Positions 39,697 through 56,696 of a stretch of DNA of 64,000 nucleotides are shown piece by piece. The notes under the pieces were generated by a model that was not told the origin of the DNA, did no database searches, and saw nothing but the letters and a program-made list of their open reading frames with translations. Each line of letters opens with the position of its first letter. Positions within the stretch are counted from its first letter, which is position 1. The DNA comes from Candidatus Woesearchaeota archaeon (lineage in GTDB: Archaea; Nanobdellota; Nanobdellia; Pacearchaeales; GW2011-AR1). Both the position numbers and the translations under genes were made by a program. The DNA lies in assembly GCA_964355745.1 (NCBI GenBank), contig CAYHEN010000001.1, positions 17 to 64,016 on the forward strand, written 5' to 3'.

Positions 39697-41241
39697 ATGA
39701 AAATAGTTTTAATTTCTACATTAACAGGTCCTTCAAACCTAGGGCTAGCAATCCTCTCTTCAGTCTTAAAAAAAGCAGGGTATGATGTAACTATGGTATT
39801 TATGGCAACAAATAAACTAACCAAAAACTCATATAATAAAAAAGAATTAAAACAATTAGAATTAATCTGTGAAGGCTGTGATTTAGTTGGGATTAGTTCA
39901 TTTACTGCAACATCCAAAAGAACAATTCAGATAATCGATTTTTTGAAGGGGAAAGTTCCAAATATGGTTTGGGGAGGAGTTCATGCCACTCTTTATCCAG
40001 AAGACTGTATTAAATATTGTGATATTGTATGTGTTGGTGAAGGAGAAGAAGCAATTTTAGATTTGGCAAAGGCAATTGAAAAAAACAAGCCAATTGATAA
40101 TATTAAAAATTTATGGATTAAAAAGGATAATAAAATAATAAGAAATCCAATTAGAAATATGATTAATGATTTGGATAAGATTCCTTTCCCAGATTTTGAG
40201 ATTGAAAAGCAATTTGTTCTAAAAAATGGGAAATTAAAGGGATTTGAAGAAAAAGATTTCGGCGGGCTGATAATATTTATGGCTGGTAGAGGTTGCCCTT
40301 ATGGATGTGACTATTGCAGCAATAATGTATTCAATAGGATATATGAGGGGAAAAGAGAATGCATAGTAAGAAAACACAGTATTGATTATGTTATTGATGT
40401 ATTGGCTTATATAAAGAACAAATTTCCAAATGTTAAAAATTTAGAGATTTCCGATGATTCATTTTCTCTCAGACCAATCAAAGAAATAAAAGAATTTGGT
40501 GAGAAATACAAAAAGAGAGTTGGTTTAAAATTCTATTGTTTAATTGACGCAAGAACTCTCACAGAAGAAAAAGCCAAGTTATTAGTTGATGCTGGATGCC
40601 AGATGGTTACAATAGGGATTCAAAGTTCAGAGAGGGTTAATAGACAAGTTTATCACAGGTATATAACAGATGAAGATGTACTTAGGAGTTCTAAAATATT
40701 AAAAAGTGTAAGTAAAAATTTAGCAACTACTTATGATATTATAACCTGTAATCCTTATGAAAAGCCGGAAGATATAATCGCTTTAATTAATCTTTTGAGA
40801 AAAATACCAAAGCCTTATCGTCTTTCAGTTAGTGCTCTTCTTTATTTTCCAGGAACCAATATAACTAATCGTGCCTTAAAAGACAAATTAATAACTGAAA
40901 AAGACTTATTCCAAGAAGATACTCCTGACAGGATGGGATTTCTTTTGAAGAGAAAAAAGAATCTGTACCTTAATTTAATTTCTACTTTAATGGGTGGGCT
41001 TGCTATAGACAATAAAGTAGGGTTAATTAATGATTCTTGGTTTGATTATCTTCTTGATGAAAAAAGGATTGAGAAGAATTTAAAAAATCCTTTTTTTGTT
41101 ATTTTGTTTATAAGATTCTTTAGAGTTCGTGATTTTGTTAGAAATAATATAGTAAAGAAAATTATTCCAGAATCATTTAAAAGAAGATATATAGAAATCA
41201 GGCTTAAAAATAAAATTCTATACAATCCAGTTCAAAACTAA
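39697..41241 (+). CDS. B12-binding-domain radical SAM protein (paralog of 15932-17470)
   Basis: GRGCPYGCDYCSN, VCVGEGEEAILDLAKAIEK. High similarity to the minus-strand paralog. Confidence 0.8.
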   Translation: MKIVLISTLTGPSNLGLAILSSVLKKAGYDVTMVFMATNKLTKNSYNKKELKQLELICEGCDLVGISSFTATSKRTIQIIDFLKGKVPNMVWGGVHATLYPEDCIKYCDIVCVGEGEEAILDLAKAIEKNKPIDNIKNLWIKKDNKIIRNPIRNMINDLDKIPFPDFEIEKQFVLKNGKLKGFEEKDFGGLIIFMAGRGCPYGCDYCSNNVFNRIYEGKRECIVRKHSIDYVIDVLAYIKNKFPNVKNLEISDDSFSLRPIKEIKEFGEKYKKRVGLKFYCLIDARTLTEEKAKLLVDAGCQMVTIGIQSSERVNRQVYHRYITDEDVLRSSKILKSVSKNLATTYDIITCNPYEKPEDIIALINLLRKIPKPYRLSVSALLYFPGTNITNRALKDKLITEKDLFQEDTPDRMGFLLKRKKNLYLNLISTLMGGLAIDNKVGLINDSWFDYLLDEKRIEKNLKNPFFVILFIRFFRVRDFVRNNIVKKIIPESFKRRYIEIRLKNKILYNPVQN

Positions 41242-41304: not shown

Positions 41305-42840
41305 TTAGGTTCTAGTTATCTTTCTTTTAAATATCCTTAATATTTCAAAATCATTTCTGTCTAAACTCTTTGTTACAAGAATTAATAAAATATACAATAG
41401 AATAAAAAAAGAACCGAGCAAAATTATTGAGATTAAATTAATAGAAAAAAATTGTCTAACATAAAGGAGTATTATAGAAGGAATTGCTACTGAAATTAAT
41501 ATCCGAATCATTTTCCTCCTTATAGGAACTATATTAATGTAATATTTAACCTGAAAGAAAAGAATTATATTAAGGAGGATGTAACTTATTGTTGTAGAAA
41601 ATGCTGCTCCATTAATTCCATATTTTGGAATAAGCAAGATATTTAATACGAAATTAAAAACAGAGAGGATTATTATATCTATTAAAGATATTTTAGATTT
41701 TCCAATAACCAATATCAGATTTTCTGAGATTTGTGTCATAGAACAGAACAAAAAACCCACTGATAAAATCTTAAGAGCCTGTTCTGCTGCCATATACTGT
41801 TCACCAAAGAGAATATTGATAAATGCACCAGAAAATAAAAACATAAGGGAAAAGAAAGGAAGGTTTATGATTAATATCCATTTTTGAATTTGCTTGCTCA
41901 ATTCTCTCATGACTTCAATCTTTTTTTCAGAAAATTCTCTAATAACCATTGGAAAGAGAATCTGCAAGAATAAAGAGGGTACAAAAACCATTAAAGAAGC
42001 GATTGGAAAGGCGGCATTATAAATACCTACATCAGAAGAACCCTTAAAGAATCCTATAACTGAAGAATCCGTATATGCAAAAAGATCGAATAGGATGTTT
42101 GAAAAAATGAGAGGTATAGAATATAAGAAAAATTTACTTTTTATCTGTTTTTTTATTTTTTCTTTTAGAATATAACTTTTAAAAATTTCTGGAAGTTTAT
42201 ATCTGCAGTAGAGATAAGCCACAAAGAAAACTGTTAAGATGCCTATCAGGTAAGAAAGGGCTACTGAATTAGCTTTTACCCCAAAGAAAATGAGCAAGAG
42301 AAGAGAAACTAATTTAATTAAGGTCTGGAAAAATTCTGATATAAAAGAATGTACTTTTATTTTTTCAAATCCCCTTATTAAACAAAGAAAAACAGAACCA
42401 ATCATGTAAAAAGGCATTGCAATGCTTAATATTTTGAGAAAAATGATTAGATTTGGCTCATGGAAGAGATTAATAGAAATAAATTCTGAGGAAAAAAATA
42501 GAATTAAACTAAAGAAAATGCTTGATAGAGTTAATATTAAAACAGAAAATCTAAAAATGTACCTAATATTATTGATTTTTTTTGTACCCCTGTAAAAAGG
42601 AATAAATCTCAAAAGCCCTTCAAAAAATCCAAAAGAAGAGATAGATACAGCAAATAAGAAAACTATAGAAGCAAGGGAGAAAGTACCATAAACTGCAGGT
42701 CCAAAATTTCTAGCAATAACTATCCTGTAAAAGTAAAAGAGAACCTTAGAAAACAGAACTGTAACAAAGATAAAAACAGAAGTCTTTGCAATTATCTTTA
42801 AAGAATCGTCTATATCTTCATCTTTTGATTTTTTATTCAT
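41305..42840 (-). CDS. Wzx-type oligosaccharide flippase (MOP superfamily)
   Basis: 511 aa, about 12-14 hydrophobic helices, polysaccharide-biosynthesis-protein topology. Sits inside the GT cluster. Confidence 0.65.
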   Translation of the reverse strand: MNKKSKDEDIDDSLKIIAKTSVFIFVTVLFSKVLFYFYRIVIARNFGPAVYGTFSLASIVFLFAVSISSFGFFEGLLRFIPFYRGTKKINNIRYIFRFSVLILTLSSIFFSLILFFSSEFISINLFHEPNLIIFLKILSIAMPFYMIGSVFLCLIRGFEKIKVHSFISEFFQTLIKLVSLLLLIFFGVKANSVALSYLIGILTVFFVAYLYCRYKLPEIFKSYILKEKIKKQIKSKFFLYSIPLIFSNILFDLFAYTDSSVIGFFKGSSDVGIYNAAFPIASLMVFVPSLFLQILFPMVIREFSEKKIEVMRELSKQIQKWILIINLPFFSLMFLFSGAFINILFGEQYMAAEQALKILSVGFLFCSMTQISENLILVIGKSKISLIDIIILSVFNFVLNILLIPKYGINGAAFSTTISYILLNIILFFQVKYYINIVPIRRKMIRILISVAIPSIILLYVRQFFSINLISIILLGSFFILLYILLILVTKSLDRNDFEILRIFKRKITRT

Positions 42841-42870: not shown

Positions 42871-43950
42871 TTAGCCCGAATATTTTAATTCATCTATAAT
42901 CTTACTTAATTTTTCAAAAAGAGGGGTTGGATTCATTTTTCTCTTAAATAAACTCTTTAAAAAATTCATGTCATAAATATAAATTTGACCGCCATATTCT
43001 CCTCCTAAAACTCTTTTCCGAGCAAAATTATCCTCTAAATCAGAAGAATTAGATTCCAAAATAGGTTTCGGTTTTCCTTTAAACAGAATTTGATTTGGAA
43101 AACTAGAACTGTCTATATAAAAATGACTATAAAGAATCATGTAATAAGCAGCTAAACATCTAAGAAAATTGTCGTCTTTTAGCCTTTTTTTTAAAATGTT
43201 AAATCTGTTTACTTCAGAAAGATTTCTTAATATCATAAAATGTGTAAGAAAATCATAAAGATTGTATGCCTTTTTCATTAAGAAATTTTTTAAAAATCTC
43301 TCATTGCCATATTTTTCTATATATTGATTAAAAACAGGATAATTTTTTAAAAAGGGGTAAACAAACCTTCTTATATGAGTAGTATCTGGACCGAGATAAT
43401 TTTCTTTGTCAAAGGAAAAATCATAATTAACTAAAAGAACCAAATCCTCTCTATATCCAAAAAAACATTCATCGCCCATAAAGAAAGGTTTAGTCATTTC
43501 AAACCAAGGAGCCCATATTTTGTATTTGAATATATTCCCTTTAGGTAAGGAGTATAATATTTCAAGAATTTTCTCTTTTTCAGAAAATAATTTTTCTAAA
43601 AATTTAGGTTCTATGTATACATCTGTGCGAGTTTTTAATACAAATTTGTCTTTAGATACCTTGTTTAATCCAGCCTCTAGAGATTTCATCTGACACCATA
43701 CGTTTCCATCTCCCCTATCTATTGGCTCTTCGCTTTCCACTACTAAAACTTTTTTACTTTTCAGAAAAGAAGAGAGTTCTGGAGTTTTTTGGACTTCTCC
43801 TTTCCATGTTGATAGGATGATTTTAGCTACGAGCCATTTCTTACGCAACGAAGTTAAATCTTCAATGGTCTTTTTGAATGAATCTAATTCTCTTATCAGC
43901 CCACAAAAAACCACATCTACTGGTTTAACTTTTTTATTTTTTAGGGTCAT
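42871..43950 (-). CDS. Hypothetical protein (359 aa), island-specific
   Basis: Long ORF. No recognisable motif. Confidence 0.4.
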   Translation of the reverse strand: MTLKNKKVKPVDVVFCGLIRELDSFKKTIEDLTSLRKKWLVAKIILSTWKGEVQKTPELSSFLKSKKVLVVESEEPIDRGDGNVWCQMKSLEAGLNKVSKDKFVLKTRTDVYIEPKFLEKLFSEKEKILEILYSLPKGNIFKYKIWAPWFEMTKPFFMGDECFFGYREDLVLLVNYDFSFDKENYLGPDTTHIRRFVYPFLKNYPVFNQYIEKYGNERFLKNFLMKKAYNLYDFLTHFMILRNLSEVNRFNILKKRLKDDNFLRCLAAYYMILYSHFYIDSSSFPNQILFKGKPKPILESNSSDLEDNFARKRVLGGEYGGQIYIYDMNFLKSLFKRKMNPTPLFEKLSKIIDELKYSG

Positions 43951-44057: not shown

Positions 44058-45668
44058 ATGAAAAATTACGAAATACTGATGATTGTACCCAGATATGAAT
44101 CAACTAATAAAAAGAGGTATAATTACTTTTTTCCAATTGGTTTAGGGTATATTGTGGCAGTTTTAAAAAAGGCAGGGTATTCTGTAGATTGTTTAAATCT
44201 AAATCACGAAAAAGGAGCTTCAGAAGAAATAATAAAAAATTATTTAGATAAAAAAGAATATAACTTTGTTTGTACGGGGAATAATGCTTTAGGTTATAAA
44301 ATTACGAGAAAGATAATTAATTCTGCTAGGGCACACAAATCAAATCCAAAGATAATCCTTGGAGGACCTCTTATAACCAGTGAACCAGATTTGATATTTA
44401 AGGACCTTCGTCCTGATTTTGGGGTTATCGGAGAGGGAGAGGGAACTATTGTAGAAATTTTAGAATATTTAAAAAAAAATAAGCCATTGAAAGAAGTTAG
44501 AGGGTTAATGTATTGGGAAGATGATAAAGCCATATTAACTGAAAAAAGAGTATCATTAAATATTGATTCTATCCCTTTTCCTGATTTTGACGCTTTGGGG
44601 TTTAAAGAATATTTAGATAATTCTGCCCCAAATTATTCTTATATGCATAGTGTCTTTGATAATCCTAGAACTTACTATATTGTTGGTAGTCGTTCATGCC
44701 CCTTCCAATGCACTTTCTGCTGGCATTATGATAATAAATACAGACAAAGGTCAATTGATAATATAATGAAAGAATTAGAAGAAAGAGTAAAAAGATACAG
44801 AATTAATAGGATTTATATATTAGACGAATGTTTCTCAATAGATAAAAAGAGATTGGTTGAATTCTGTAAAAGAATTTCTAAATTAAAGAAAGAAATCTCT
44901 TGGGAATTAAGATGGATTAATTCCTCAAAAGTAAGCGATGTTGATGAAGATATTTTAAGAATGTTGAAAGAATCTGGCTGCGATATTATAAGTTATGGGT
45001 TTGAAAGTTATAGTCTGATAATTCTTAAAGGCATGAAGAAAATGATTACTCCAGAACAAATTGACAACGCTATTAAAAAAACCTATAACGCGAAAATTGC
45101 GATACAGGGTAATTTTATTTTTGGTGATATTGCAGAGACTAAAGAAACAGCATACGAAACTCTCAATTATTGGAAGGAAAATTGCGAGGGGCAACCGTAT
45201 CTAGCATTCATAATGCCATTTCCAAACAGTGAGATATACAGGTCTTGTTTAGAAAGAGGAATAATAAAAGATAAGTTAGAATTTATAAAAAATTTGGAGG
45301 GAGAATTCATAATGAAAATGACAGATAAGATGACAGATGAAGAATTCAACCAACTAAAAGAAGACATACTAAAAGCACTTGCTAAGTATAATAGAATAGT
45401 AAAACCGATATCAATCAAAAAGATAAAAGGTAAAAGATATGAATTGGAAGTAAAATGCCCTTATTGTAATCAAATAATAGAGTATAGGAATTTTTTAATT
45501 AAAAGTAAACTTTATTATCTTCTTTATGTAATGTGTAAAGATTGTTCTAAAAAATTTCATATAGGAAATAGTTTAACCGTATTTTTATATAAAAATTATG
45601 ATAAAGCAAAAAAGTTAAGAACCATGAAAGATAAAGTAGCAGGTTATATCAGGAAGATGAAACAATAA
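44058..45668 (+). CDS. B12-binding-domain radical SAM protein with C-terminal C4 zinc-ribbon
   Basis: GSRSCPFQCTFCWH, N-domain FVCTGNNALG...ILGGPLIT. C-terminus CPYCNQ...CKDCSKKF. Confidence 0.8.
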   Translation: MKNYEILMIVPRYESTNKKRYNYFFPIGLGYIVAVLKKAGYSVDCLNLNHEKGASEEIIKNYLDKKEYNFVCTGNNALGYKITRKIINSARAHKSNPKIILGGPLITSEPDLIFKDLRPDFGVIGEGEGTIVEILEYLKKNKPLKEVRGLMYWEDDKAILTEKRVSLNIDSIPFPDFDALGFKEYLDNSAPNYSYMHSVFDNPRTYYIVGSRSCPFQCTFCWHYDNKYRQRSIDNIMKELEERVKRYRINRIYILDECFSIDKKRLVEFCKRISKLKKEISWELRWINSSKVSDVDEDILRMLKESGCDIISYGFESYSLIILKGMKKMITPEQIDNAIKKTYNAKIAIQGNFIFGDIAETKETAYETLNYWKENCEGQPYLAFIMPFPNSEIYRSCLERGIIKDKLEFIKNLEGEFIMKMTDKMTDEEFNQLKEDILKALAKYNRIVKPISIKKIKGKRYELEVKCPYCNQIIEYRNFLIKSKLYYLLYVMCKDCSKKFHIGNSLTVFLYKNYDKAKKLRTMKDKVAGYIRKMKQ

Positions 45669-45669
45669 A

Positions 45670-46425
45670 ATGAATATTATAGTCCCTCTTGCAGGCAAAG
45701 ATAAGAATTTTGAGAATAGAGGAATGATAAAACCTTTAACAAAAATCAGAGGCAAGGAAATAATAAAATGGATTTCTGAATCAAGACCTTTCCCTTACGA
45801 AAATGCGATCTTCGTTGTTTTAAGAGAACATCAGGAACAATATAGCATAATAGATGAATTAAAAAGGCTATTTGGAGAGAGGATAAAGATTGTTATTGCT
45901 GAACAAATGACAGAAGGTTCTCCTCAATCCATTCTCCTTGCAAAGCCTTTAATTGACAACAACGAAGAGCTTTTAATTGATTTGGGAGATCAGTATCTTG
46001 ACTTAACAGAGTTTGAGCAAGTTATGCATAAAGAATTTATGAAATCAGATGAAAAAAGATATGATGGAATCATTCCTACTTTCAAGGCTTATTATTGGAA
46101 TCAAGGATATATGATTATCGGAGAAGATGGTTTTGTGAGAAAAATCTCTGAAAAGGATCCTGTTCCAATTTCTAACGATTCCACTGCTTGTATTTCTTAT
46201 TTCAAGAAGGGCTCTCACTTTGTGAAATATGCTCAACAAATGATTGCTAAAAAAAGAACAGCAGTAAATGGGGTTTACCTGCCGAGTTTGACTTACAACG
46301 AAATGATTGAAGATGGAAAGAAGATCGTTACTTGTCCATGCGAGATGATTGTTAATCTTGGGAAGATAGAGGGTGTTGATGTATTTGAACAAATAAACAG
46401 GCCTTTGAAATGGAAACAGAAATAA
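45670..46425 (+). CDS. Nucleotidyltransferase (NTP_transferase / GT-A-like, LicC/sugar-phosphate type)
   Basis: MNIIVPLAGKDKNF ... LIDLGDQY. Paralogous to 47890-48663. Confidence 0.55.
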   Translation: MNIIVPLAGKDKNFENRGMIKPLTKIRGKEIIKWISESRPFPYENAIFVVLREHQEQYSIIDELKRLFGERIKIVIAEQMTEGSPQSILLAKPLIDNNEELLIDLGDQYLDLTEFEQVMHKEFMKSDEKRYDGIIPTFKAYYWNQGYMIIGEDGFVRKISEKDPVPISNDSTACISYFKKGSHFVKYAQQMIAKKRTAVNGVYLPSLTYNEMIEDGKKIVTCPCEMIVNLGKIEGVDVFEQINRPLKWKQK

Positions 46426-47153
46426 TCTTACATAGAGGATATAAAGGAAAACATTTAGAAAACAGCAGAGTTGCTTTTGAAAATGCTATAAGAGAATGTA
46501 TGTCTTTTGAGACAGATATAAGAGTCAGCAAAGACGGAAAATGTTTTCTAATTCATGATGAATACTTGGAAAGGCTTCTTGGCATTTCAGGAAGAGTACA
46601 AGATTACAATGCTGAAAGATTAAGAAACATGAAATATATTGGAGATTCTTCTTCTTTGGTTTTGTTTGACGAATTAATAAATTTAATTAAAAAAAATAAA
46701 GAAAATTCTGGTAAAATTTTTATTCATATCAAACAATTAAACGATATTCCTTATGTTATGCACTCTTTAGATGGAAATTTAAAAGAAAAATTAAGATTTT
46801 TTGCCTGTGATGATATTACTAAAGGATTAGTAAACTTAATCAGAGAAAATTATCCAGGATATATTGTAGGATTGCATGTTGCTGAAGATTCTCCTTATAA
46901 AAATGAAGAACATTTTAAGAAGGCAGATTTTATCTGGACCGATGAAATTAAAAAGAAAAGCATAAATTCTCGATTAGTTAGACTTGCTAATAGCACAGAA
47001 AAGCCAATATATGTTATCTCGCCAGAATTAATCCCTGAATCTGTATTTAATAAAGACATTCAAAAAAGGTGGAGAGAGTTTGTTGCAATGAATGTAAACG
47101 GAATCTGTACAGACAAACCAATTGAACTTATGAATTTCTTAAGGAAGAACTAA
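46410..47153 (+). CDS. Glycerophosphodiester phosphodiesterase family protein
   Basis: ILHRGYKG..ENSRVAFENAI..ETDIRVSKDGKCFLIHD is the GDPD signature HR..ENT..E.D...DG..V..HD. Confidence 0.65.
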   Translation: METEIILHRGYKGKHLENSRVAFENAIRECMSFETDIRVSKDGKCFLIHDEYLERLLGISGRVQDYNAERLRNMKYIGDSSSLVLFDELINLIKKNKENSGKIFIHIKQLNDIPYVMHSLDGNLKEKLRFFACDDITKGLVNLIRENYPGYIVGLHVAEDSPYKNEEHFKKADFIWTDEIKKKSINSRLVRLANSTEKPIYVISPELIPESVFNKDIQKRWREFVAMNVNGICTDKPIELMNFLRKN

Positions 47154-47893
47154 TTCTTTTTTTTAAAGAATATTAAATCACAAGCAGAAGGACATCCTTC
47201 AATATATCCTAACTCTCTTTGTACGAATCCGATAAAGCCATATTTCTCTAATAAAGGAATGAGATTCCCTAACTTCATCTGCTTTTTATGAAAGTCTTTA
47301 AAGAACCATTCAATTTGCAGAACATCTACTTCTTTTAATCTGTTACCAAATCCTCTGAGAACATTGGTTTCTGCTCCTTCCACGTCAATTTTGACGAAAC
47401 AAGGTCTTTCTATTGAGATTTTTAGTTTATCAAACCTTTTCTGTTGTAATCTTACTTCAGAAAGTTTGTCTTTAGCCCCAATGTATTTTGTATAATTTGT
47501 AAGAGGTTTTAGAAAAGAACTTGCGCCTGTATTCTCTCTATTCACATAAAACATGCTTTCTCCTTCCTTGTCCCATAACCCAAAATTAAAGGCAGTTACA
47601 TTTTTTATTTCCTTGATTATATTGTAAAATTTTATTTGGGGTTCAAATGCATATATTTTGGCCTTAGGGAAGATGTATTTTGCCGCTTTTATAAACAAAC
47701 CTTCATTAGCTCCGATATCAATTATTGTTTTAACTTCTCCAATTAAATCTTGGGTAGTAAGACAAGTATAACAGTGATTAGAATTTATTCCTTTAAATTT
47801 TCCCGTTAAAACTCGAGGATATTCTATAATTCTCTCAACTGTTCTGCTTAATCTCTTCAATTTTGAATTCATTTTAAAAGAATTCGGTGTCAT
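47150..47893 (-). CDS. FkbM-family methyltransferase
   Basis: IIDIGANEGLFIKAA ... AFEPQ resembles FkbM motifs. Confidence 0.6.
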   Translation of the reverse strand: MTPNSFKMNSKLKRLSRTVERIIEYPRVLTGKFKGINSNHCYTCLTTQDLIGEVKTIIDIGANEGLFIKAAKYIFPKAKIYAFEPQIKFYNIIKEIKNVTAFNFGLWDKEGESMFYVNRENTGASSFLKPLTNYTKYIGAKDKLSEVRLQQKRFDKLKISIERPCFVKIDVEGAETNVLRGFGNRLKEVDVLQIEWFFKDFHKKQMKLGNLIPLLEKYGFIGFVQRELGYIEGCPSACDLIFFKKKN

Positions 47894-48663
47894 TTAAATT
47901 TTTTATTATTTCTTGATTCAAAAAAATCCAAAACCTTGTTTTTATTCTCAAAAAATTCTTCGGGAGCCCCTAACTGAAACATTTCGGCTATAGGATAATG
48001 AAGGATAGTCTTAAAATCCTGAATAAACTGATTGTAGACAGGAGCAGTATAAAATTCATTGTTTACTCTTATATTCTTTGCAATCATCCTTTCTGCATAC
48101 TTCACAAAGTCAGAGCCTTTCGCAAAATAATAAATTCCAACTGAACCATGGTTGCTTATCACTGATTTTTCTGCTGTTTCAATTATCTGCCCTTTTGAAT
48201 TTACCCTTGAAAAGCTATAATTTGGTCTGTCAGTATGAATATTCACGATTGCACCATCTGCCTTGTTTCTTTCTACAAACTCAAAGAAATGCTCTGGATT
48301 CCAGTTGATTATCTGGTCACAATCCTTTACAATCATCGAATTATCATCGTTAAAATAGTCCTTAGCCAGCAGAACAGTGCAAACAGCTCCCTGAGTTATT
48401 TCATTTATCTTTACTATTTTTGCGTTTGGCTCTATCTCTAAAAGTTTTTTGTCTAGCTGAAATTCATCACAATGATCTTGCCTTACAATAAAAATAAATT
48501 GTGCCTGAGGAACTTTCATAATGTCAATTATATGCTTAATAACCAAATCATCTCCTATCTTTAACAGGGGTTTTGGAGTCATATATCCTGCTTCAATAAA
48601 TCTCTGTCCTCTCCCTGCCATGGGAATAACAATATTTATTTTTTTCATTTCACATACCCCCAC
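47890..48663 (-). CDS. Nucleotidyltransferase (NTP_transferase family)
   Basis: MKKINIVIPMAGRGQRF ... TPKPLLKI. Confidence 0.6.
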   Translation of the reverse strand: MGVCEMKKINIVIPMAGRGQRFIEAGYMTPKPLLKIGDDLVIKHIIDIMKVPQAQFIFIVRQDHCDEFQLDKKLLEIEPNAKIVKINEITQGAVCTVLLAKDYFNDDNSMIVKDCDQIINWNPEHFFEFVERNKADGAIVNIHTDRPNYSFSRVNSKGQIIETAEKSVISNHGSVGIYYFAKGSDFVKYAERMIAKNIRVNNEFYTAPVYNQFIQDFKTILHYPIAEMFQLGAPEEFFENKNKVLDFFESRNNKKFK

Positions 48664-49889
48664 TTCTCAATTGCCAAATTTAATTCTATTTTATTTTTCA
48701 TAAATTTCTGAATATCTGCGCCTTGCTGATAACATTCAAATGCCTGTCGCATTGCTCTTGCTCCTGCTTCTGTTCCAAGAGGATGTCCCTGCATTGCTCC
48801 TCCTACATTCATCATTAAATCAGTCCCAAAATTGCCTATTGTTGTATTAACCAATCCAGGATGACTTCCGCATGATAAAGAAGGAACAGTCGGGTTGTAA
48901 GTATTTCCTTCTCTTAAAGATTCCATCACTCTTGACAGATCCTCTTTTGTATCAGAAAGATACCCCCCCCACATCCCTGCATGTATAAAATCAGAACCCA
49001 TCATTCTTGCTAATTTGCAAAGAACATTCCAGTCGATGCTGAAGTCATGTTTTTTATTTGTTATAACTTTGTCTCCGCTCTTCTGAAAGAAAATCGCACT
49101 TTTCAAATCCAAGTCTCTAAGAGTCCTATATGCTGAAAGTCCTGCCCAAAAATTTAAATGCAGTGCTTTTGCTCCATTTTCTGAAGCGAATTTTGCTCTT
49201 TCTAACAAATAAGGATAATCAGAATTTATACATGGAGCATAAAATATTTCTCTTTTCTGCTTTGCTGAAAATTCATTAACTATATCTGAAACTCTTTTTA
49301 CTCTCTCTTTAAACCTACAAAAATAAGGATTTCCCAAGATTTCATCTTCTTTAATAAAATCAACTCCTCCTGCTAACATTTCTTTAATCATCTCTTCTAA
49401 TTGAGAGACTGTAATCCCTGTTTTGGGTTTAACTATCCCCCCAAGCAGCGGCCTATCAACTGCTCCTGCTCTTCTTTTGATATCTTTTATCCCAAATTTT
49501 GGACCTTTGTACTCTTCTAAAAATTTCTTAGGAAAGCCGATATCAATAAGTCTGCAGGATTTAATTTCATCTATATCCATTTGCCCCCCCATAAGCGTGC
49601 ATAGTAATTGAGTTATCCCATCTTCATAAATATCAAAATTAATTAAAGGATAAGCAATCTGAACAATTCCGTTTGAAGGAGCAATTTCATTTACATTGAT
49701 AATTTTTGCTAAATTATTCTTGAATATTTCCGGAGAATCTCTCTGGGTTCTAATTTCTGGATTTCCGATTGACTGTCCTATTGCAATATCTTTTGTAGCC
49801 TTTGTTAGATCTTTGCTCCTAATTGAATACGTTGCAATAATATTTTCTTCTCCATCCACCTTAGATTGAAAGATATATTCGTCAATCAT
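48645..49889 (-). CDS. RuBisCO large-subunit family protein, probably a RuBisCO-like protein (RLP)
   Basis: GGIVKPKTGI matches the KPK(L)G motif. GGVDFIKEDE matches GGLDFTKDDE (carbamylated-Lys motif). FIHAGMWGGYLSD aligns to HIHSGTVVGKLEG. VGGAMQGHPLGTEAGARAMRQA aligns to [21 protein letters not shown]. In my alignment the positions of H294/R295 and K334 are not conserved. Confidence 0.7.
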   Translation of the reverse strand: MIDEYIFQSKVDGEENIIATYSIRSKDLTKATKDIAIGQSIGNPEIRTQRDSPEIFKNNLAKIINVNEIAPSNGIVQIAYPLINFDIYEDGITQLLCTLMGGQMDIDEIKSCRLIDIGFPKKFLEEYKGPKFGIKDIKRRAGAVDRPLLGGIVKPKTGITVSQLEEMIKEMLAGGVDFIKEDEILGNPYFCRFKERVKRVSDIVNEFSAKQKREIFYAPCINSDYPYLLERAKFASENGAKALHLNFWAGLSAYRTLRDLDLKSAIFFQKSGDKVITNKKHDFSIDWNVLCKLARMMGSDFIHAGMWGGYLSDTKEDLSRVMESLREGNTYNPTVPSLSCGSHPGLVNTTIGNFGTDLMMNVGGAMQGHPLGTEAGARAMRQAFECYQQGADIQKFMKNKIELNLAIEKWGYVK

Positions 49890-50008
49890 ACCTGAAACTG
49901 CGATTAAGAATTTATAAATATATATGCAATAATAAAGAATATTTCATATTTTTGAAGCATATTTCATAACAAAGAAATCTTTATAAAAAAGAAATTGTAG
50001 ACTTGTAA

Positions 50009-51811
50009 GTGGAAGAAAGAAATGTAGAATTATTTGTTCCTGGCAGATTATGTTTGTTTGGGGAGCATTCTGATTGGGCAGGAGGACATAGGGTACAAAA
50101 TTCCAAAATTGGAAAAGGATATACTATTGTTGTTCCTACAAACCAAGGGACATATGCAAGAGTAAAAAAAATTGATGAATCTCTTTTTAGATTAAAGACT
50201 GCCTTAAATGAAAAAAATATAGAAATCCCATTAAAAAAAGAAGAGTTATTAAAAATCGCAGAAGATGGAGGCTTTTTTAGTTATATTGCCGGAGTTATTT
50301 ATGAAATCATAGAGAGTTACGAGCAATGCACAAAACACGGAATTGAAATAGATAATTACAAAACTGATCTTCCTATTAAAAGCGGACTCTCAAGTTCAGC
50401 ATCAATATGTGTTCTTGTAGTAGAAGCGTTTAATAAAATATACGGACTTGGATGCACTAAAAGAAGAATTATGGAATTGGCTTATTTGGGGGAAATAACA
50501 ACTCCTTCTAGATGTGGAAGAATGGACCAAGCCTGTGCCTATAAAAAACCAGTATTGATGATTTTTGATGGGAATAGAGTTAATGTAGAAGAATTAAATA
50601 TCCAAAAAGAGCTCTATCTTTTAATTGTGGATTTAAAAAAGGGGAAAAATACAGTCAAAATTCTTGCAAATTTAAATGAAGGTTTTCCTTGGCCAAGAGA
50701 TGAAAGAGAAAAACAAAAGCATGAGTATTTAGGGCCAATTAATAAACAAATTGTTCTGAGTGCTAAAAAATTTATTGAGGGGGGAGATGCCATAAAAACA
50801 GGGGTAATGATGACTTTGGCTCAGAATTTTTTTGATTCCTATCTAAAAGAATTTTGTCCAGAGGAACTTGAAGCCCTTGTATTGCATTCTGTTTTAGAGA
50901 TGCCAGAGATTCAAAAATTTATTTATGGAGGAAAAGGAGTTGGGAGTGGTGGTGATGGTAGTGCGCAAATTATCTGCAAGTCTAAAGAAGATAGGGAAGA
51001 GGTTAAAAAAATATTAGAATCTAAGAGTTTTGGATGTTTAGATTTAGATTTAATTCCATCTGAAAGATACATAGATAAAAAAATCAAGGCTATAATTCCT
51101 GCAGGAGGCTTTGGTGAAAGATTATACCCTTTAACTGAAGAAAAACCTAAATCTCTACTGGAAATTAAAGGAAGAGCTTTAATCGATTATACAATTGATA
51201 AAATTAATGAAATAAAAAATATTAGTGAAATAATTATAGTCACAAACAATCTTTTTTATAAACAATTTTTAGAATGGAAAAAAAGAAGAAAAGAGAATAT
51301 AAAAATTATAAATAATGGTATAAATTCAAGCCAAGAACTTTCAAGCGGATTGGGAAACCTTTCAATTGCAATTAATAATGGAGATGTAAATGAGGATATC
51401 TTAGTAATTGGTGGAGACAATTTCTTTGAATGTTCCCTAAATGAGATTTATAATATTTTTAAAAAAGAAGAAAAAGAATTGGCTATATTTCATCATGTTC
51501 AAGACATAGAAAGAGCAAAGAGTTTGGGGGTTGCTCAAATTAAAGACAACATACTCGTAGATTTCAAAGAAAAACCAGAAAATCCAAAATCTACTATATG
51601 CTCCACTAGTGCTTATTTTTATAAAAAAGAAACATTAAACCTGATAAATGATTTTGCGCAGATGCGTATACATGGCCATTTGGGAACTTTATTAGAACAT
51701 CTTTACAAAATTTCCCCTGTCTATGCCCATGTTATAAAAGAAAAATGGATAGACATAAATGATAAAAATGCATTGAAGTTAGCAGACCCAATAACTTATA
51801 GAGATTTATAG
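50009..51811 (+). CDS. Fusion: GHMP sugar kinase + sugar-1-phosphate nucleotidyltransferase
   Basis: N-terminus VPGRLCLFGEHSDWAGG (galactokinase-like signature) and LPIKSGLSSSAS (GHMP motif). C-terminus IKAIIPAGGFGERLYPLTEEKPKSLLEI (NTP_transferase). Confidence 0.65.
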   Translation: MEERNVELFVPGRLCLFGEHSDWAGGHRVQNSKIGKGYTIVVPTNQGTYARVKKIDESLFRLKTALNEKNIEIPLKKEELLKIAEDGGFFSYIAGVIYEIIESYEQCTKHGIEIDNYKTDLPIKSGLSSSASICVLVVEAFNKIYGLGCTKRRIMELAYLGEITTPSRCGRMDQACAYKKPVLMIFDGNRVNVEELNIQKELYLLIVDLKKGKNTVKILANLNEGFPWPRDEREKQKHEYLGPINKQIVLSAKKFIEGGDAIKTGVMMTLAQNFFDSYLKEFCPEELEALVLHSVLEMPEIQKFIYGGKGVGSGGDGSAQIICKSKEDREEVKKILESKSFGCLDLDLIPSERYIDKKIKAIIPAGGFGERLYPLTEEKPKSLLEIKGRALIDYTIDKINEIKNISEIIIVTNNLFYKQFLEWKKRRKENIKIINNGINSSQELSSGLGNLSIAINNGDVNEDILVIGGDNFFECSLNEIYNIFKKEEKELAIFHHVQDIERAKSLGVAQIKDNILVDFKEKPENPKSTICSTSAYFYKKETLNLINDFAQMRIHGHLGTLLEHLYKISPVYAHVIKEKWIDINDKNALKLADPITYRDL

Positions 51812-51815
51812 AAAG

Positions 51816-52613
51816 TTATCTTAACAATTTCTTTTTATTGAGGAGGTATTGTTCAATTCCACCTATACAATGGTCTGCTGCTAATCCTCCCTTTACTCCC
51901 CCTTCTTTTAAGAATTTGGAAAGAGAATCTGTATCTGTTGGCAAAAACCATAAATCAGAATGTTCTTTATTTTCTGGGTTTAATCTCAGTTTTGTATGGG
52001 GAACTCTCAAGGGAATATAAATATAAGTAGTTAAATCTGTGTTGCTTCCTCTGGACAATCCAAGAAATCTTGCGTCTTGAATATCAAATGCACTTTCTGG
52101 ACAAAGCAAATCATACGCTCCCTCTTCATGGCATTCAGAATATGCAACACTAAATGGGTTTTTAGGAGGTAAATTCTTTTCATTGTCAAAGAATCCTGAG
52201 CCAAAAAAGCAAAGTCCTCTTTGATCAGAGATTCCTCCTCTTACTGCAATCGGTATAAAACCGTCAGTTGTTTCTTGGATTGAATTAACTGTTATTGGTG
52301 ATGGGTAGAAAGAATCTGGCATTCCCTTTGTCTCTCTTAGAATATTGTGCCAAACATATTTTGTTGGACTTACCCATAGATGTAAATTTTTATCGGAATC
52401 AAAAGTGTATCCCTCATATCTCCATGCACCTTCACGAAGGGGACGTTTACCTCCACTTTTTTTGTTCCATTTTTCTTCTATTTCTCTTTCAAGGCTGGGG
52501 GGTAATACAAAAGTAGATTCTCTTTCTCCCATTAAAACCTGATTACATCCGAGAAATGGAGGTTCTGGTTCTAAAAAGAAAGTTAGATTTTTACCATATT
52601 CTGATCTTCTCAT
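51816..52613 (-). CDS. Hypothetical protein
   Basis: 265-aa ORF. No confident motif. Confidence 0.4.
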   Translation of the reverse strand: MRRSEYGKNLTFFLEPEPPFLGCNQVLMGERESTFVLPPSLEREIEEKWNKKSGGKRPLREGAWRYEGYTFDSDKNLHLWVSPTKYVWHNILRETKGMPDSFYPSPITVNSIQETTDGFIPIAVRGGISDQRGLCFFGSGFFDNEKNLPPKNPFSVAYSECHEEGAYDLLCPESAFDIQDARFLGLSRGSNTDLTTYIYIPLRVPHTKLRLNPENKEHSDLWFLPTDTDSLSKFLKEGGVKGGLAADHCIGGIEQYLLNKKKLLR

Positions 52614-52698: not shown

Positions 52699-53679
52699 GT
52701 GAAAAATCCAAAAGTATCTATAATTATTCCTTCGAGAAGCGTGGATTCTTTGACTGAAAAATGCATTCAAGAGTGTTTAAACTTGGATTATGACAACTTC
52801 GAAATTATATTGTCTGTGGCAGTTAAAAACAAAAGTTTCAAAGACAAGAGAGTTAAAATAATTGAAGTCGGAGAGGTTAAACCATCTATAAAAAGAAATA
52901 TGGCGATGAAGAAAGCAAATGGAGAATTTTTGGCATTTATTGACTCTGATGCATATCCAAGAAAGGATTGGCTGAAAAATGCAATTAGATATTTTGACGA
53001 TGAAAAAATAGGAATTGTTGGTGGTCCAAATTTAACCCCTCCAGAAGGAAATTTTGCTGAAAGAGTTTCTGGTTATGTTCTTTCTAATTTTTGGGCAAGC
53101 GGATTTGCTTATTTAAGATACAGGATAACCGAAAATCAGTTCGTTAAAATGATGCCTTCGTGTAATTATATCTCTCGGAAAAAAATTTCTCCAGAGTATG
53201 ATTCTGGATTTCTGACTGCAGAGGATTCTAAATTCTGTTTTGAAATTAAAAAAAGGGGGTATAAAATATTTTATGCTGGGAATGTCGTGGTATATCATCA
53301 TAGAAGAGATACAATGAAGAAACATATTAAACAAATGTTTATTTATGGCAGGGATATGAGTTGGTTAATTAAGGAAGAATTTTCTCTTGATAAATTATAT
53401 TTCTCTCTGTTGAGTCTTTTTAGCTTAGGATTTGTCGCAGGGATTATTTTGTCTATTTTCTCTCTAACAGTTAGAATATTTTTTTTATATTTAGTTTTTA
53501 TTTATGCATTGATTATCTTATTTACTAGTATTCATGAAAATATAAAAACAACTTTTTGGGTTAGCATAATTACAATACTAACACATTTTTCCTATGGGTT
53601 TGGTTTTTTATATGCGGCACTATTCAAAAATTCGAAAGAAAAGGCAGTTTATCCTACACTAAAATCAAATAGCGTCTAA
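52699..53679 (+). CDS. Glycosyltransferase family 2 with C-terminal TM helices
   Basis: VSIIIPSRS and FIDSDAY (DxD). C-terminus hydrophobic. Confidence 0.7.
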   Translation: MKNPKVSIIIPSRSVDSLTEKCIQECLNLDYDNFEIILSVAVKNKSFKDKRVKIIEVGEVKPSIKRNMAMKKANGEFLAFIDSDAYPRKDWLKNAIRYFDDEKIGIVGGPNLTPPEGNFAERVSGYVLSNFWASGFAYLRYRITENQFVKMMPSCNYISRKKISPEYDSGFLTAEDSKFCFEIKKRGYKIFYAGNVVVYHHRRDTMKKHIKQMFIYGRDMSWLIKEEFSLDKLYFSLLSLFSLGFVAGIILSIFSLTVRIFFLYLVFIYALIILFTSIHENIKTTFWVSIITILTHFSYGFGFLYAALFKNSKEKAVYPTLKSNSV

Positions 53680-54133: not shown

Positions 54134-55660
54134 TTATTCCTGAATCATATTTACAATGTCTGCAAATGCAGGTCTTGTGATTAAAACTCCTAAGGTAATT
54201 CCTATCAACGTCATAATCGCAAATCCCTTTAACAAACCCGCTCCTGCCCATAAAAGAGGCAATAATGAAACTACTACTGTAAAATATGCTCCTAAAATTA
54301 TTGTAAATGCCCGTTTTATTCTCTGTTTAACGCTTAAAACTTCTTTTGTTTTTGCTTCATCCAATACAACAATTTGGTCATCTACTCCTGTCCCTATTGC
54401 GGCAAGGATTCCTGCTATTCCCGCCAAATCTAAATCCTGTCTTAAAAGTGCTGCTATTCCCAAAGTAATTATTATTTCAGAAGTACAGATGAGCAAAGGA
54501 GGGATTGCTAATCTGAATTTTTTGTATTTTATGAATATTATAATCGCTACAGAAAGCAATGCTATAACTCCTGCAAGAAGTATGTATTTCGTAAAGTTAG
54601 TTCCAAGCGTAGGAGAGATTGTCTGAAGCTTAACAATTTCTAACTTGAAAGGCAGACTTCCTGTGATTAAAATTGTCTGAAGATTTTTCATTTGTGCTTC
54701 TGCATCTTTTACTGCATCTAATTGTGTTTCTCCAAAACCACTTCCAGTAATCTGAATTTGTGTTGTTACTCTTCCCTTCAAGTTCTCACTTATCAGCAGA
54801 CTATCAACTAAATTATCATCTAAATACAAATCTAATTTTTTAGAAAGGTAATTTCCCTGAGAAGTTAAATTAACACTTATGTTGCTTGTTATTGCTGCGT
54901 GTCTCTCTGCAGCGGTTTGGCTTAAATAAACAGTAAATCTAAACTCGCAAAAATACCCTCCTTGTGGATTCTGATTACAAGAATAAACTCCTGAATCCTG
55001 TCCTCCTCTCGCCACATCAGAGATATCTTTTTCTCCTCCAATAAAAACAGTTTCATTTCCTATTTTGGCTTCAAATTTTCCCTGCTGAGAGATTAAATTT
55101 TCTAAATCTTTTGGAGTTGCTCCTGCAATTTCTACTAACATAAAATAATCTCCATACAAATCCCTGATTGGCCTTACAGTAATGTCAGAAATTCCGTAAA
55201 CATTAAACCTATTGCTAATTACATTTACTAAATCATTAATCTCGTTAGAACTTAGTTTATGATTTTCTGCTCTTACTAATGCTCTCGAACCCCCTGATAA
55301 ATCCAGTCCTGTTTTCAAATTGGTTTTTGGAAGACTGGAAACAGTTATCCCTAACGAATCATTTGAATAGATGACATATTCTCCACTTGTTGTAGTTATC
55401 GTTGTCTTTATTTTTTCATTGGAAATAAATTTCTCCTGTATAATCTTGGAATAATCCTCGATACTGCTTATTGCTTTTCCATCTATAGAAGTAATTACTT
55501 GTTTGGCTCTTACTCCTTGTTCAAAGACAGAGGAGTTTTGTTCAACACTGGTTATTTCAACTCCTTTTTGCATAAAATTCGGAGTAATAAAAATAGAAAT
55601 CAAGGCTAAAGCTAAAAAAATCAGCCAAAGCCAGATTCTAAAGGTGAATTTAATTTTCAT
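54134..55660 (-). CDS. secD: Protein-export membrane protein SecD
   Basis: N-terminal TM, large extracytoplasmic domain, then a C-terminal 5-TM bundle with LIGITLGVLITRPAF. Follows secF, which is the archaeal gene order. Confidence 0.7.
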   Translation of the reverse strand: MKIKFTFRIWLWLIFLALALISIFITPNFMQKGVEITSVEQNSSVFEQGVRAKQVITSIDGKAISSIEDYSKIIQEKFISNEKIKTTITTTSGEYVIYSNDSLGITVSSLPKTNLKTGLDLSGGSRALVRAENHKLSSNEINDLVNVISNRFNVYGISDITVRPIRDLYGDYFMLVEIAGATPKDLENLISQQGKFEAKIGNETVFIGGEKDISDVARGGQDSGVYSCNQNPQGGYFCEFRFTVYLSQTAAERHAAITSNISVNLTSQGNYLSKKLDLYLDDNLVDSLLISENLKGRVTTQIQITGSGFGETQLDAVKDAEAQMKNLQTILITGSLPFKLEIVKLQTISPTLGTNFTKYILLAGVIALLSVAIIIFIKYKKFRLAIPPLLICTSEIIITLGIAALLRQDLDLAGIAGILAAIGTGVDDQIVVLDEAKTKEVLSVKQRIKRAFTIILGAYFTVVVSLLPLLWAGAGLLKGFAIMTLIGITLGVLITRPAFADIVNMIQE

Positions 55661-56696
55661 GTTTGTTCTTCAACACATACCATTTAATTATTGAAACATT
55701 AGTAAGCCATGTATTAATCAAATCAAACATTAAACCAATAAGCATAATTGTAAAAATCTGAGAGAGTATAGAAGAGAATGAACCAATAACAATTAATACA
55801 ATTAAAACAGAAAAGATAGATGTGAGAGTCATTGTGATTCCTGTCTTGAATGAATCAAACAATTTTCTGTTTAGACTTCCTCCCTCTCTTTTTATCGCTT
55901 TTATTGTAAGCAAAATATCTGTATCTACACTGTATCCGATAAGCATCAAGAATGCAACAATTCCTGCACTTGAAATTGAAATTCCCAAAAGGTTAACTAA
56001 AACTAAAGTCATGAATATGTCTGCAAAAGCAGAAAAAATTACAGCCATTGAGGGGATGCTGTATTTTATATAAAAGAAAAGATTTACTAAAAAGATTGTC
56101 CCTGAAAAAATAAATGCTTGATTGATTGAAATTACATGTATTGCAAAAAAGAGGAAAGGAGTTAATAAAGACAAAAATACTAACAAAGTCTTAATCTTTG
56201 TGTTCTTTGAGAAGATAAAGAAAACGACTGTCCCCATAAAGGTGAATGCAAATAAAATTGCCAGTATTAATTGTGAATAAAACCCTTCACTCAAAGTAGA
56301 GCCAGTAAATTCAAAACTGCTGTTCTCGTCATTTAATTCATACCCAAGATAGCCTTCAAGAACTTCTCTTGTCTGTGAGTCATTGCTTCTTGTTTCTACT
56401 ATCACTGCAATCTGTTTTTGAGTTATCAAATCAGAAATTTCTCGAATCTGAACTCCTTCAAGTTTGCTTGAAATTGCATTTCTTAAATCTGCTAAGTCGA
56501 TATTTTCATCATTGATAGTTACAGAAGTTCCTCCTGTCAGAGAAACGTCCTTATTAATAAAATCATGGTGTTGCGAATAAAAAAATCCCATATAAACAAA
56601 ACTTGATACGATTAAAATTAGGGGAATTAAGAGCAAAATCTTATAATTCTTGTCATGAAACTTTGTGAATTTTTCTTTAAATTTTTCTTTTTCCAT
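55650..56696 (-). CDS. secF: Protein-export membrane protein SecF
   Basis: Single N-terminal TM, periplasmic domain (VSLTGGTSVTI), and a C-terminal TM bundle. Overlaps secD by 11 nt. Confidence 0.65.
   Translation of the reverse strand: MEKEKFKEKFTKFHDKNYKILLLIPLILIVSSFVYMGFFYSQHHDFINKDVSLTGGTSVTINDENIDLADLRNAISSKLEGVQIREISDLITQKQIAVIVETRSNDSQTREVLEGYLGYELNDENSSFEFTGSTLSEGFYSQLILAILFAFTFMGTVVFFIFSKNTKIKTLLVFLSLLTPFLFFAIHVISINQAFIFSGTIFLVNLFFYIKYSIPSMAVIFSAFADIFMTLVLVNLLGISISSAGIVAFLMLIGYSVDTDILLTIKAIKREGGSLNRKLFDSFKTGITMTLTSIFSVLIVLIVIGSFSSILSQIFTIMLIGLMFDLINTWLTNVSIIKWYVLKNKHEN

Follow-up and report, generated by a model that had tools for sequence, protein, structure and literature searches.

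A RuBisCO-like protein clade tied to a nucleotidyltransferase in a glycan island of a DPANN archaeon and in related cassettes

Why should a relative of RuBisCO be encoded within a block of genes for glycan synthesis? The roles assigned so far to RuBisCO-like proteins (RLPs) lie in the salvage of sulfur and methionine and in the degradation of rare sugars. The stretch analyzed here, 64,000 nucleotides of contig CAYHEN010000001.1 from a Candidatus Woesearchaeota archaeon (hereafter, the window), carries an RLP gene that overlaps the gene of a sugar-phosphate nucleotidyltransferase (NTase). From sequence comparison we favor, with moderate confidence, the reading that this RLP is a sugar-phosphate-rearranging enzyme of a mobile nucleotide-sugar cassette, the product of which would be passed to the NTase and become a donor for surface glycans.

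Fold and active site of the RLP

A sequence-only reading of the window had recognized the open reading frame (ORF; Table 1) by four RuBisCO large-subunit motifs. Its boundaries are exact, and all four motifs occur in the translation: VKPKTG (residues 153 to 158), GGVDFIKEDE (174 to 183), FIHAGMWGGYLSD (301 to 313), and VGGAMQGHPLGTEAGARAMRQA (362 to 383). The protein matches the Pfam models RuBisCO_large (PF00016; E value 1.8e-49, 169 bits, cut-off 30.1) and RuBisCO_large_N (PF02788; 1.7e-10, 41.6 bits, cut-off 20.7) as well as solved form III RuBisCOs (E values from 1e-53 to 1e-50), a resemblance in sequence that is far beyond chance. The AlphaFold (AF2) model, built with 19 homologues, has a mean pLDDT of 90.3 and superimposes on the form III structures of Thermococcus and Pyrococcus (3A12, 2D69) with TM scores of 0.90 to 0.93; the predicted architecture is the N-terminal alpha/beta domain and C-terminal TIM barrel of the RuBisCO large-subunit superfamily. 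GC content around the gene is 0.34 in a window ranging from 0.27 to 0.34, so there is no compositional anomaly, and the closest named relatives belong to metagenome-assembled genomes (MAGs) of Pacearchaeota, Woesearchaeota, and Nanoarchaeia.

Active-site residues were mapped by a HMMER alignment to 8DHT and by MAFFT alignments to form I, II, and III references. Kept in the window RLP are K175, K177, the carbamate lysine K201, D203, E204, H327, S379, G381, G403, and G404. In the numbering of the window protein the Mg/carbamate core reads K180, D182, and E183, with K154 as the equivalent of K175, and these four residues are invariant across 128 family members. The complete carboxylase and ribulose-1,5-bisphosphate-binding set of form III is broken at eight positions: E60 is replaced by G38 (followed by Q39), T65 by N43, W66 by P44, N123 by G102, H294 by Q269, R295 by K270, H298 by D273, and K334 by Y310. 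The glutamine and tyrosine that had been called by eye at H294 and K334 are thereby confirmed; the serine called at R295 was off by one, as K270 occupies that position and the serine is residue 271.

Curated NCBIfam models all score the protein far under their cut-offs, namely, 245 bits versus 497 for rubisco_III (TIGR03326), 215.6 versus 409 (NF007095) and 182.4 versus 513.6 (TIGR03332) for MtnW, and 145.6 versus 700 for OiaX (NF042437). Because eight carboxylase or substrate residues are lost, every NCBIfam cut-off is missed, and the protein falls in a clade of its own outside forms I, II, and III, we place it in form IV (RLP) in the broad sense, the class that the sequence-only reading had preferred, and predict that it is not a carboxylase.

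This clade has the signature G38-Q39..N43-P44 / G102-Q103-x-D105 / K154-P-K156 / K180-E-D-E183 / Q269-K-S-G-D273 / H303 / Y310 / S339-C-G341 / G363-G364 (as motifs, GQSxGNP / GGQxD / KPK / KEDE / QKSGD / H / Y / SCG / GG), every residue of which is present in the window RLP. Over 128 sequences the signature residues are at least 97% conserved, apart from Q103, K270, D273, and H303 (94 to 96%); Q103 is histidine in 7 sequences, and K270 is serine or arginine in 4. Even members with as little as 37% identity show the pattern nearly unchanged, and this speaks for a catalytic function that is conserved. C340 was considered as an essential catalytic residue and rejected, since glycine stands there in the clade of natural RLP::NTase fusions. 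A neighbor-joining (NJ) tree was built from distances with a small set of references: MtnW, OiaX, two further RLPs, and RuBisCO forms I, II, and III. In it the clade is monophyletic in 200 of 200 bootstraps and joins the bona fide RuBisCOs in only 6; its sister group is unsettled (OiaX-type proteins in 93 replicates, MtnW in 63).

Form III RuBisCOs (Thermococcus kodakarensis 1GEH/3A12, Pyrococcus horikoshii 2CWX, and 8DHT) are closest in both sequence (29 to 32% identity) and fold, and they share with the window RLP the carbamate lysine, the Mg ligands, K175, K177, H327, S379, and the P1 glycines; unlike them, the window RLP has no AMP-pathway genes nearby and has an NTase as obligate partner. 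MtnW (IV-YkrW, 2,3-diketo-5-methylthiopentyl-1-phosphate enolase) is a noncarboxylating homologue that enolizes a 1-phospho keto compound with the same Mg/carbamate core (about 29.5% identity, TM scores of 0.84 to 0.87), but the MtnW reference has a different pattern (K177V, R295P, H327L, K334S, H294 kept) and belongs to methionine salvage, adjoining the MtnX phosphatase, whereas the window RLP is found with an NTase and glycan genes. OiaX/OiaC of D-apiose catabolism and the four-carbon acid-sugar-kinase RLPs act on phosphorylated acid- or keto-sugars; these proteins are 25 to 28% identical to the window RLP (Agrobacterium OiaX, 25%), keep H294, R295, and K334, lack K177, and reside in catabolic operons with kinases.

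Conserved partners and distribution

Partners, defined as genes within 5 kb of the RLP gene, were counted with hidden Markov models from our own alignments at 104 loci, each flanked on either side by 2.5 kb or more. A homologous NTase of the 4EVW type is present at 102 of the 104, and these RLP-NTase loci span DPANN archaea, SAR11, Legionella, Verrucomicrobia, Planctomycetes, Elusimicrobia, Actinobacteria, and viral contigs. The two proteins are also naturally fused, in an RLP::NTase polypeptide of 667 to 671 amino acids (aa) (cluster P0121, 128 members); at least 11 of its 15 listed members are full length, with Tara, JGI/IMG, MGnify, and ENA as their sources. A giant-virus MAG contig encodes an NTase::cupin fusion. 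At the window locus, the RLP stop codon and NTase start codon share the sequence ATGA, and so do the NTase stop codon and the start codon of an FkbM-family methyltransferase gene. These overlaps, together with a candidate TATA box (TTTATAAA), fit a single three-gene transcript, and the RLP, NTase, and FkbM genes are probably expressed as one leaderless message. The FkbM gene also adjoins the pair in close DPANN relatives, and an FkbM-like family, assigned by sequence reading, is found at 11 of 80 viral loci; among 150 ORFs around 12 viral copies, Pfam Methyltransf_21 matches 2.

The sequence-only reading had tied the RLP to nucleotide activation through its neighbors, two NTP-transferases and a GHMP-kinase::NTP_transferase fusion. 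All three genes are as described (Table 1), and the tie itself is strengthened by the NTase at 102 of 104 loci, the ATGA overlap, the RLP::NTase fusion, and the exclusivity with HAD proteins reported below. The partnership with the GHMP-kinase fusion had to be abandoned: since that gene is absent beside the RLP in other genomes, the conserved partner is instead the small downstream NTase. The GHMP-kinase fusion itself looks, from its domains, like a self-contained sugar-1-kinase/pyrophosphorylase salvage unit.

The window NTase keeps the GxGxR motif. The profile of its family matches PDB entry 4EVW (1.3e-35), an uncharacterized structural-genomics "nucleoside-diphosphate-sugar pyrophosphorylase," followed by mannose-1-phosphate, glucose-1-phosphate, and GlcNAc-1-phosphate NTases of the ManC/RmlA/GlmU type (e-12 to e-8), while IspD (3e-5) and LicC (2.5e-4) are far weaker; this closeness to sugar-1-phosphate NTases favors a substrate of the sugar-1-phosphate type. 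A paralog without GxGxR occurs at 16 of the 104 loci and accompanies the RLP in DPANN archaea, Verrucomicrobia (L012), Planctomycetales (L022), and SAR11 type-1 loci; like the regulatory subunits of some NTases, it may be a noncatalytic or repurposed subunit. Its gene in the window overlaps that of a GDPD-family phosphodiesterase by 16 nucleotides (nt).

GDPD-type enzymes are the third most conserved members of the cassette (87 of 104 loci, 84%), being full length in DPANN archaea and reduced elsewhere (SAR11, viruses) to a 150-aa form, mini-GDPD. The latter has no Pfam match, but hhalign relates it to GDPD with a probability of 97.7%, and the HR, E-x-D, and HD motifs are kept in both the window GDPD and the mini form. 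A small metal cupin (108 aa), with a retained H-x-H...E motif and a weak likeness to small Cupin_2 and "mannose-6-P isomerase" entries, is present at 49 loci, and a DUF7796-like protein, the profile of which has no PDB match, at 43. Neither a cupin nor a DUF7796 homologue was found in the window. A 359-aa protein encoded at 42871-43950 (minus strand), with only a weak WavE match (7.6e-5), is syntenic with the RLP in L001, L005, and L008 and has no demonstrable relation to DUF7796. A 222-aa family (c51), the gene of which is upstream of that of the RLP in L041 and close to it in L028, has no relation to the NTase or GDPD families by hhalign.

About one-quarter of the closest NTase homologues (43 to 50% identity) carry an N-terminal HAD domain, the best curated matches of which are models of the beta-phosphoglucomutase (beta-PGM) family (TIGR02009 and TIGR01990, both under their cut-offs). 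Relatives of this HAD::NTase fusion were found in at least 592 stretches on IMG/VR contigs. Among 61 well-flanked HAD::NTase loci, mini-GDPD is present at 50, DUF7796 at 38, a cupin at 5, and an RLP at none. The viral cassette of HAD::NTase, mini-GDPD, and DUF7796 is thus an RLP-free twin of the RLP cassette, apparently undescribed, and the RLP (usually with the cupin) and the beta-PGM-like HAD are mutually exclusive alternatives in an otherwise identical module. The most economical reading of this exclusivity is that both supply a phospho-sugar for the NTase, which suggests that the RLP, with the cupin, replaces a phospho-sugar-supplying step. The arrangement recurs in a Nitrosopumilus genome, where HAD, GDPD-like, and NTase proteins are encoded by separate genes. 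At one locus (L139, 6654-11400) the HAD::NTase cassette is accompanied by genes for GMP reductase and a family 1 glycosyltransferase (GT1); 61 further IMG/VR loci were collected (L142-L224).

A word-indexed search returned 2,400 relatives of the window RLP at E values of 1e-10 or lower; its top matches begin at 90% identity in DPANN archaea and reach down to about 55% in Candidatus Pelagibacter and Tara sequences. When 1.84 billion representatives were scanned exhaustively with HMMER, 149 proteins had E values of 1e-30 or lower, and of these roughly the top few dozen belong to the clade, judged from their identities. Scanning one genome per species yielded 42 loci with a clade RLP, from DPANN archaea, many SAR11 single-cell genomes, one complete Pelagibacter chromosome, Verrucomicrobia, Planctomycetales, Patescibacteria, Elusimicrobia, Nonomuraea rosea, Azospirillum oleiclasticum, Turneriella, three Legionella species, Tatlockia, and Francisellaceae. 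IMG/VR holds 261 contigs with a relative at 43 to 49% identity, including contigs of 100 to 500 kb and giant-virus MAGs. When 50,697 GenBank phage records were searched by tblastn, the RLP had no match, so that the viral occurrence rests on metagenomic contigs only; terminase evidence has been published for similar phage contigs (PMC6389311). In PLSDB plasmids, every RLP match was below 30% identity, and these matches served solely as reference RLPs and RuBisCOs. Two contigs of MAGs labeled Sphingobacteriales and Balneola (L042 and L043), on which PhoH, a PD-(D/E)XK nuclease, many small ORFs, GT25, and GT8 surround the RLP-NTase pair, look from their gene content like DNA of a phage or prophage that was binned with bacterial genomes; in the RLPs that they encode, position 295 is arginine and 298 is isoleucine. 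One protein (P0258, 487 aa) has an approximately 320-aa N-terminal domain of no known kind ahead of a truncated clade RLP and is a possible further Rosetta-stone partner.

Wherever we inspected the surroundings, the RLP lies among genes for glycan synthesis. Besides the Legionellaceae (see below), bacterial RLP loci carry GT2 and GtrB-type transferases (the latter recognized by a look at the sequence) and other GTs. The commonest Pfam families among the 150 viral-neighborhood ORFs are Epimerase, GDP_Man_Dehyd, GT1/GT2, CTP_transf_3, NeuB, DegT, MptE-like, sulfotransferase, and FkbM; PhoH and thymidylate synthase (ThyA) are also among them. A marine contig with an RLP::NTase fusion (L137) also encodes, at 2707-5381, phosphoenolpyruvate mutase, a split phosphonopyruvate decarboxylase, an Fe-dependent alcohol dehydrogenase, an NTP_transf_3 protein, and sulfatase-family proteins, a phosphonate-decoration set from which it appears that two surface-decoration pathways travel together.

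Unusual RLP branches have been reported from GOS ocean data (PMC1821046), an "IV-GOS" RLP subgroup is named in a review (PMC10173188), and Jaffe et al. (2019, PMC6389311) described about 80 highly divergent "Form IV-like" RLPs, their function not known, from Beckwithbacteria and large phage contigs; the likeness of these groups to our clade is one of habitat (phage contigs, ocean metagenomes). No NTase, LicD, or glycan association is given in these three papers, and a survey from 2026 of the diversity of rubisco and its genomic context (PMC13454268), which covers bona fide forms only, has no NTase, LicD, or glycan link either. In the literature searched we found no report tying an RLP to a nucleotidyltransferase, LicD, or glycan synthesis, in agreement with the earlier suggestion that the setting is new for an RLP. 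What appears to be new here is an RLP clade that combines its own active-site signature with a predicted biosynthetic nucleotide-sugar context.

Proposed role and alternatives

To our knowledge, the reaction of every characterized member of the superfamily (RuBisCO, MtnW, the Rhodospirillum isomerase, and OiaC/OiaX) begins with removal of a proton alpha to a ketone, which Mg2+ on carbamylated Lys201, D203, and E204 polarizes. Besides this machinery, the clade has retained K175, the P1 phosphate cradle, and, at the distal anion site, H327 and a basic residue, and it lacks the residues for CO2 positioning and carboxyketone hydration (K334, N123, E60, and H294). Since the enolizing core is kept and the CO2-positioning residues are lost, we propose an epimerase or a carbonyl-migrating isomerase: the RLP would enolize a phosphorylated keto-sugar and then reprotonate it, with Y310 and D273 or D105 as candidates for the second acid/base. 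The translationally coupled NTase would turn the product into a nucleoside diphosphate (NDP)-sugar or an NDP-linked phospho-sugar, and transferases would use this donor on surface glycans, the candidates being the GTs of the island in the window, LicD in Legionella, and DUF7796 or WavE-like proteins elsewhere. The HAD of the alternative cassette would supply the phospho-sugar by shifting or removing a phosphate, and the RLP by enolization of a different precursor. More speculatively, the GDPD could reopen sugar 1,2-cyclic phosphates shed by a labile NDP-sugar.

The GDP-mannose route, in which a cupin phosphomannose isomerase is followed by a mutase of the HAD or alpha-PGM type and then by an NTase, offers a parallel. 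There, too, a small cupin, a phospho-sugar supplier, and a ManC/RmlA-like NTase come together, and the HAD::NTase variant fits this scheme closely; the RLP cassette differs in having the RLP in place of the HAD step and in the addition of a GDPD-type phosphodiesterase and DUF7796. For the chemistry, the IV-DeepYkr RLP of Rhodospirillum rubrum, described as a 5-methylthio-D-ribulose-1-phosphate 1,3-isomerase (Imker 2008 and Erb 2012, as cited in PMC6302742), offers a precedent for carbonyl migration along a pentulose phosphate (ketose-1-phosphate/ketose-5-phosphate), the likeness being one of reaction type; that enzyme works in a shunt from 5'-methylthioadenosine (MTA) to isoprenoids, without an NTase.

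If the cassette does supply activated-sugar precursors, this biosynthetic role would be a new functional class for the RuBisCO fold and would give a function to a large orphan RLP clade, members of which were perhaps already glimpsed in the ocean surveys of 2007 and on phage genomes in 2019. Its carriers include SAR11, the most abundant marine bacteria, DPANN archaea, Legionella, and contigs classed as jumbo phages or giant viruses, and the product may be a widespread determinant of surface recognition between phage and host or symbiont and host. The conserved partners, the fusions, and the RLP/HAD swap make the role directly testable, and some carriers (Legionella, Nonomuraea) are culturable.

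We infer the order of steps (RLP before NTase), the type of reaction, and the donor role, and several observations weigh against this picture. Synteny and fusions do not fix the order, being compatible with either. A simple scheme from isomerase to NTase leaves no evident room for the GDPD-type partner. The DPANN cassettes, including that of the window, have no cupin and carry the GxGxR-less NTase paralog instead. It may be that the HAD domain is a phosphatase and not a mutase, and the analogy between the two cassettes would then be a different one. A LicD gene (PF04991, 3e-43) lies divergently next to the RLP-NTase pair at 4 of the 104 loci, all Legionellaceae, a hint that some lineages transfer a phospho-alcohol and not a glycosyl group. 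Finally, the viral status of the IMG/VR contigs is that of the database classification, together with a few phage-type neighbors (PhoH, ThyA).

The first alternative reverses the two steps, so that the NTase would charge a common keto-sugar phosphate, as happens in the CDP-xylulose and CDP-6-fructose routes, and the RLP would epimerize or isomerize the nucleotide-linked keto-sugar. Fusion and synteny suit this order equally well, and the distal (P2) phosphate site is altered (R295K, H298D) and could admit a larger substituent. However, RuBisCO-superfamily sites generally close over small sugar (bis)phosphates, we know of no member with a nucleotide-linked substrate, and the alternative cassette uses a HAD of the beta-PGM family, which acts on sugar mono- and bisphosphates upstream of NTases; we regard the reversed order as unlikely. 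We hold in equally low regard, as another doubtful but reasonable possibility, a CDP-type phospho-alcohol or polyol-phosphate donor of the teichoic-acid-like kind, for which the RLP would make an unusual phospho-compound and LicD and GDPD-type proteins would carry out the phosphodiester chemistry. The LicD genes of the four Legionellaceae loci, the phosphodiesterase at 84% of loci, and the phosphonate-decoration cluster adjoining one RLP::NTase fusion would be in keeping with such a product, whereas the NTase profile is much nearer to sugar-1-phosphate NTases than to IspD or LicC, GtrB-like GT2 and other glycosyltransferases are frequent neighbors, and LicD is limited to one lineage.

A more specific proposal, to which we give a slightly lower chance still, is a phosphomutase-independent route in which the RLP (with the cupin where present) would move the carbonyl of a universal pentulose or hexulose phosphate next to the phosphate, in the reverse sense of the Rhodospirillum RLP reaction by analogy; the ketose-1-phosphate would then be converted to an aldose-1-phosphate, a rare chain-inverted sugar-1-phosphate for the NTase, and the GDPD-like enzyme would recycle the 1,2-cyclic phosphate of a labile NDP-furanose. 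Should it hold, viruses and streamlined cells would be spreading a cassette for an otherwise inaccessible surface sugar.

Salvage of by-products of S-adenosylmethionine (SAM), namely, MTA and 5'-deoxyadenosine, by an MtnW-like enolase or a Rhodospirillum-type 5-methylthioribulose-1-phosphate isomerase appears improbable. MtnW provides the second-best curated models (215 bits), more than 12 radical SAM genes of the window would produce 5'-deoxyadenosine, and K175, which we take to be the proposed C1-proton base in MtnW, is kept. Yet the MtnW cut-offs are missed; the window RLP keeps K177, H327, and a basic residue at 295 and loses H294, unlike the MtnW reference; the clade is separate from MtnW, which appears only as an unresolved sister (63 of 200 bootstraps); the partner is an NTase and not a phosphatase or dioxygenase; and no mtnA, mtnB, mtnX, mtnK, or mtnP is present among the annotated neighbors in the window and related loci, where many neighbors have no annotation.

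Hardly credible is the alternative once raised for this ORF, a divergent form III RuBisCO of AMP or nucleotide salvage placed in the island by chance: form III enzymes are its best sequence and structure matches, and DPANN archaea often carry form III RuBisCO (PMC6389311), but the eight replacements, the rubisco_III score, the tree, and the occurrence of clade RLPs with an NTase in SAR11, Legionella, and viral contigs refute it, and no Glycos_transf_3 or IF-2B domain, as expected for deoA and e2b2, was found in the 64-kb window among 37 ORFs scanned with Pfam and 3 with precomputed Pfam results (39697-41241, 41305-42840, and 44058-45668). This check took in every window ORF of compatible size except 52699-53679 (326 aa, GT2-like by tblastn) and the pair at 54134-56696 (SecD/SecF-like, from annotated homologues).

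The surrounding glycan island

The window holds a glycan island that extends over more than 50 kb, with GT1, GT2, GT4, GT9, and PMT-type transferases, a flippase, epimerases, an HldE-like heptose enzyme, and methyltransferases. The GDPD gene converges on the RLP operon, and the B12-binding radical SAM gene that heads the operon of the NTase paralog and GDPD is peripheral to the cassette, being syntenic in close relatives only (L001, L046, and L002).

Table 1. Features of the RLP locus, in window coordinates
Feature	Coordinates	Strand	Description
RuBisCO-like protein (RLP)	48645..49889	minus	414 aa, ATG start; supported by Pfam, PDB matches, and AlphaFold model
Sugar-phosphate nucleotidyltransferase (NTase)	47890..48648	minus	252 aa from ATG at 48648; longest ORF 47890..48663, from GTG at 48663
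FkbM-family methyltransferase	47150..47893	minus	Third gene of the RLP-NTase operon; Methyltransf_21 7.5e-14, TIGR01444 2.8e-22
TTTATAAA box, candidate archaeal TATA box	49911..49918	minus	About 26 nt upstream of the RLP ATG; read by eye
GDPD-family phosphodiesterase, cytosolic	46410..47153	plus	Convergent with the RLP operon; Pfam GDPD 5.1e-17
NTase paralog	45670..46425	plus	251 aa; G-K-D-x-N replaces GxGxR; only PDB match 4EVW, 1.9e-7
B12-binding radical SAM enzyme	44058..45668	plus	Heads the NTase-paralog/GDPD operon; precomputed Pfam B12-binding and Radical_SAM
GalK-like GHMP kinase::NTP_transferase fusion	50009..51811	plus	600 aa; divergent from RLP

Radical SAM genes in the island number more than a dozen: the B12-binding type accounts for at least seven (3124-4578, 5575-7005, 15932-17470, 21770-23131, 36003-37253, 39697-41241, and 44058-45668), and at least four are SPASM or other radical SAM genes (19465-20586, 26796-27860, 29318-30259, and 34934-35986). 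Their abundance suggests extensive C-methylation or other radical sugar tailoring in this DPANN archaeon. A small thiamine pyrophosphate (TPP) protein resembling E1_dh and the N-terminal part of DXP synthase (34303-34950, minus strand) is directly followed by a Transketolase-pyrimidine-binding::Radical_SAM::SPASM fusion (32660-34303, minus strand); judged by its domains, the pair is a split TPP enzyme joined to a radical SAM domain, an architecture that we matched to no known enzyme. The 265-aa product of 51816-52613 (minus strand) has no Pfam or NCBIfam match. Unusual fusions elsewhere in the island comprise a GT9 heptosyltransferase::NUDIX protein (12205-13593, minus strand), an HldE-like PfkB::cytidylyltransferase (10724-12133, minus strand), and an NTP_transferase::GT4 protein (17588-19462, plus strand), and a QueC homologue (15222-15935, plus strand) lies in the middle of the island.

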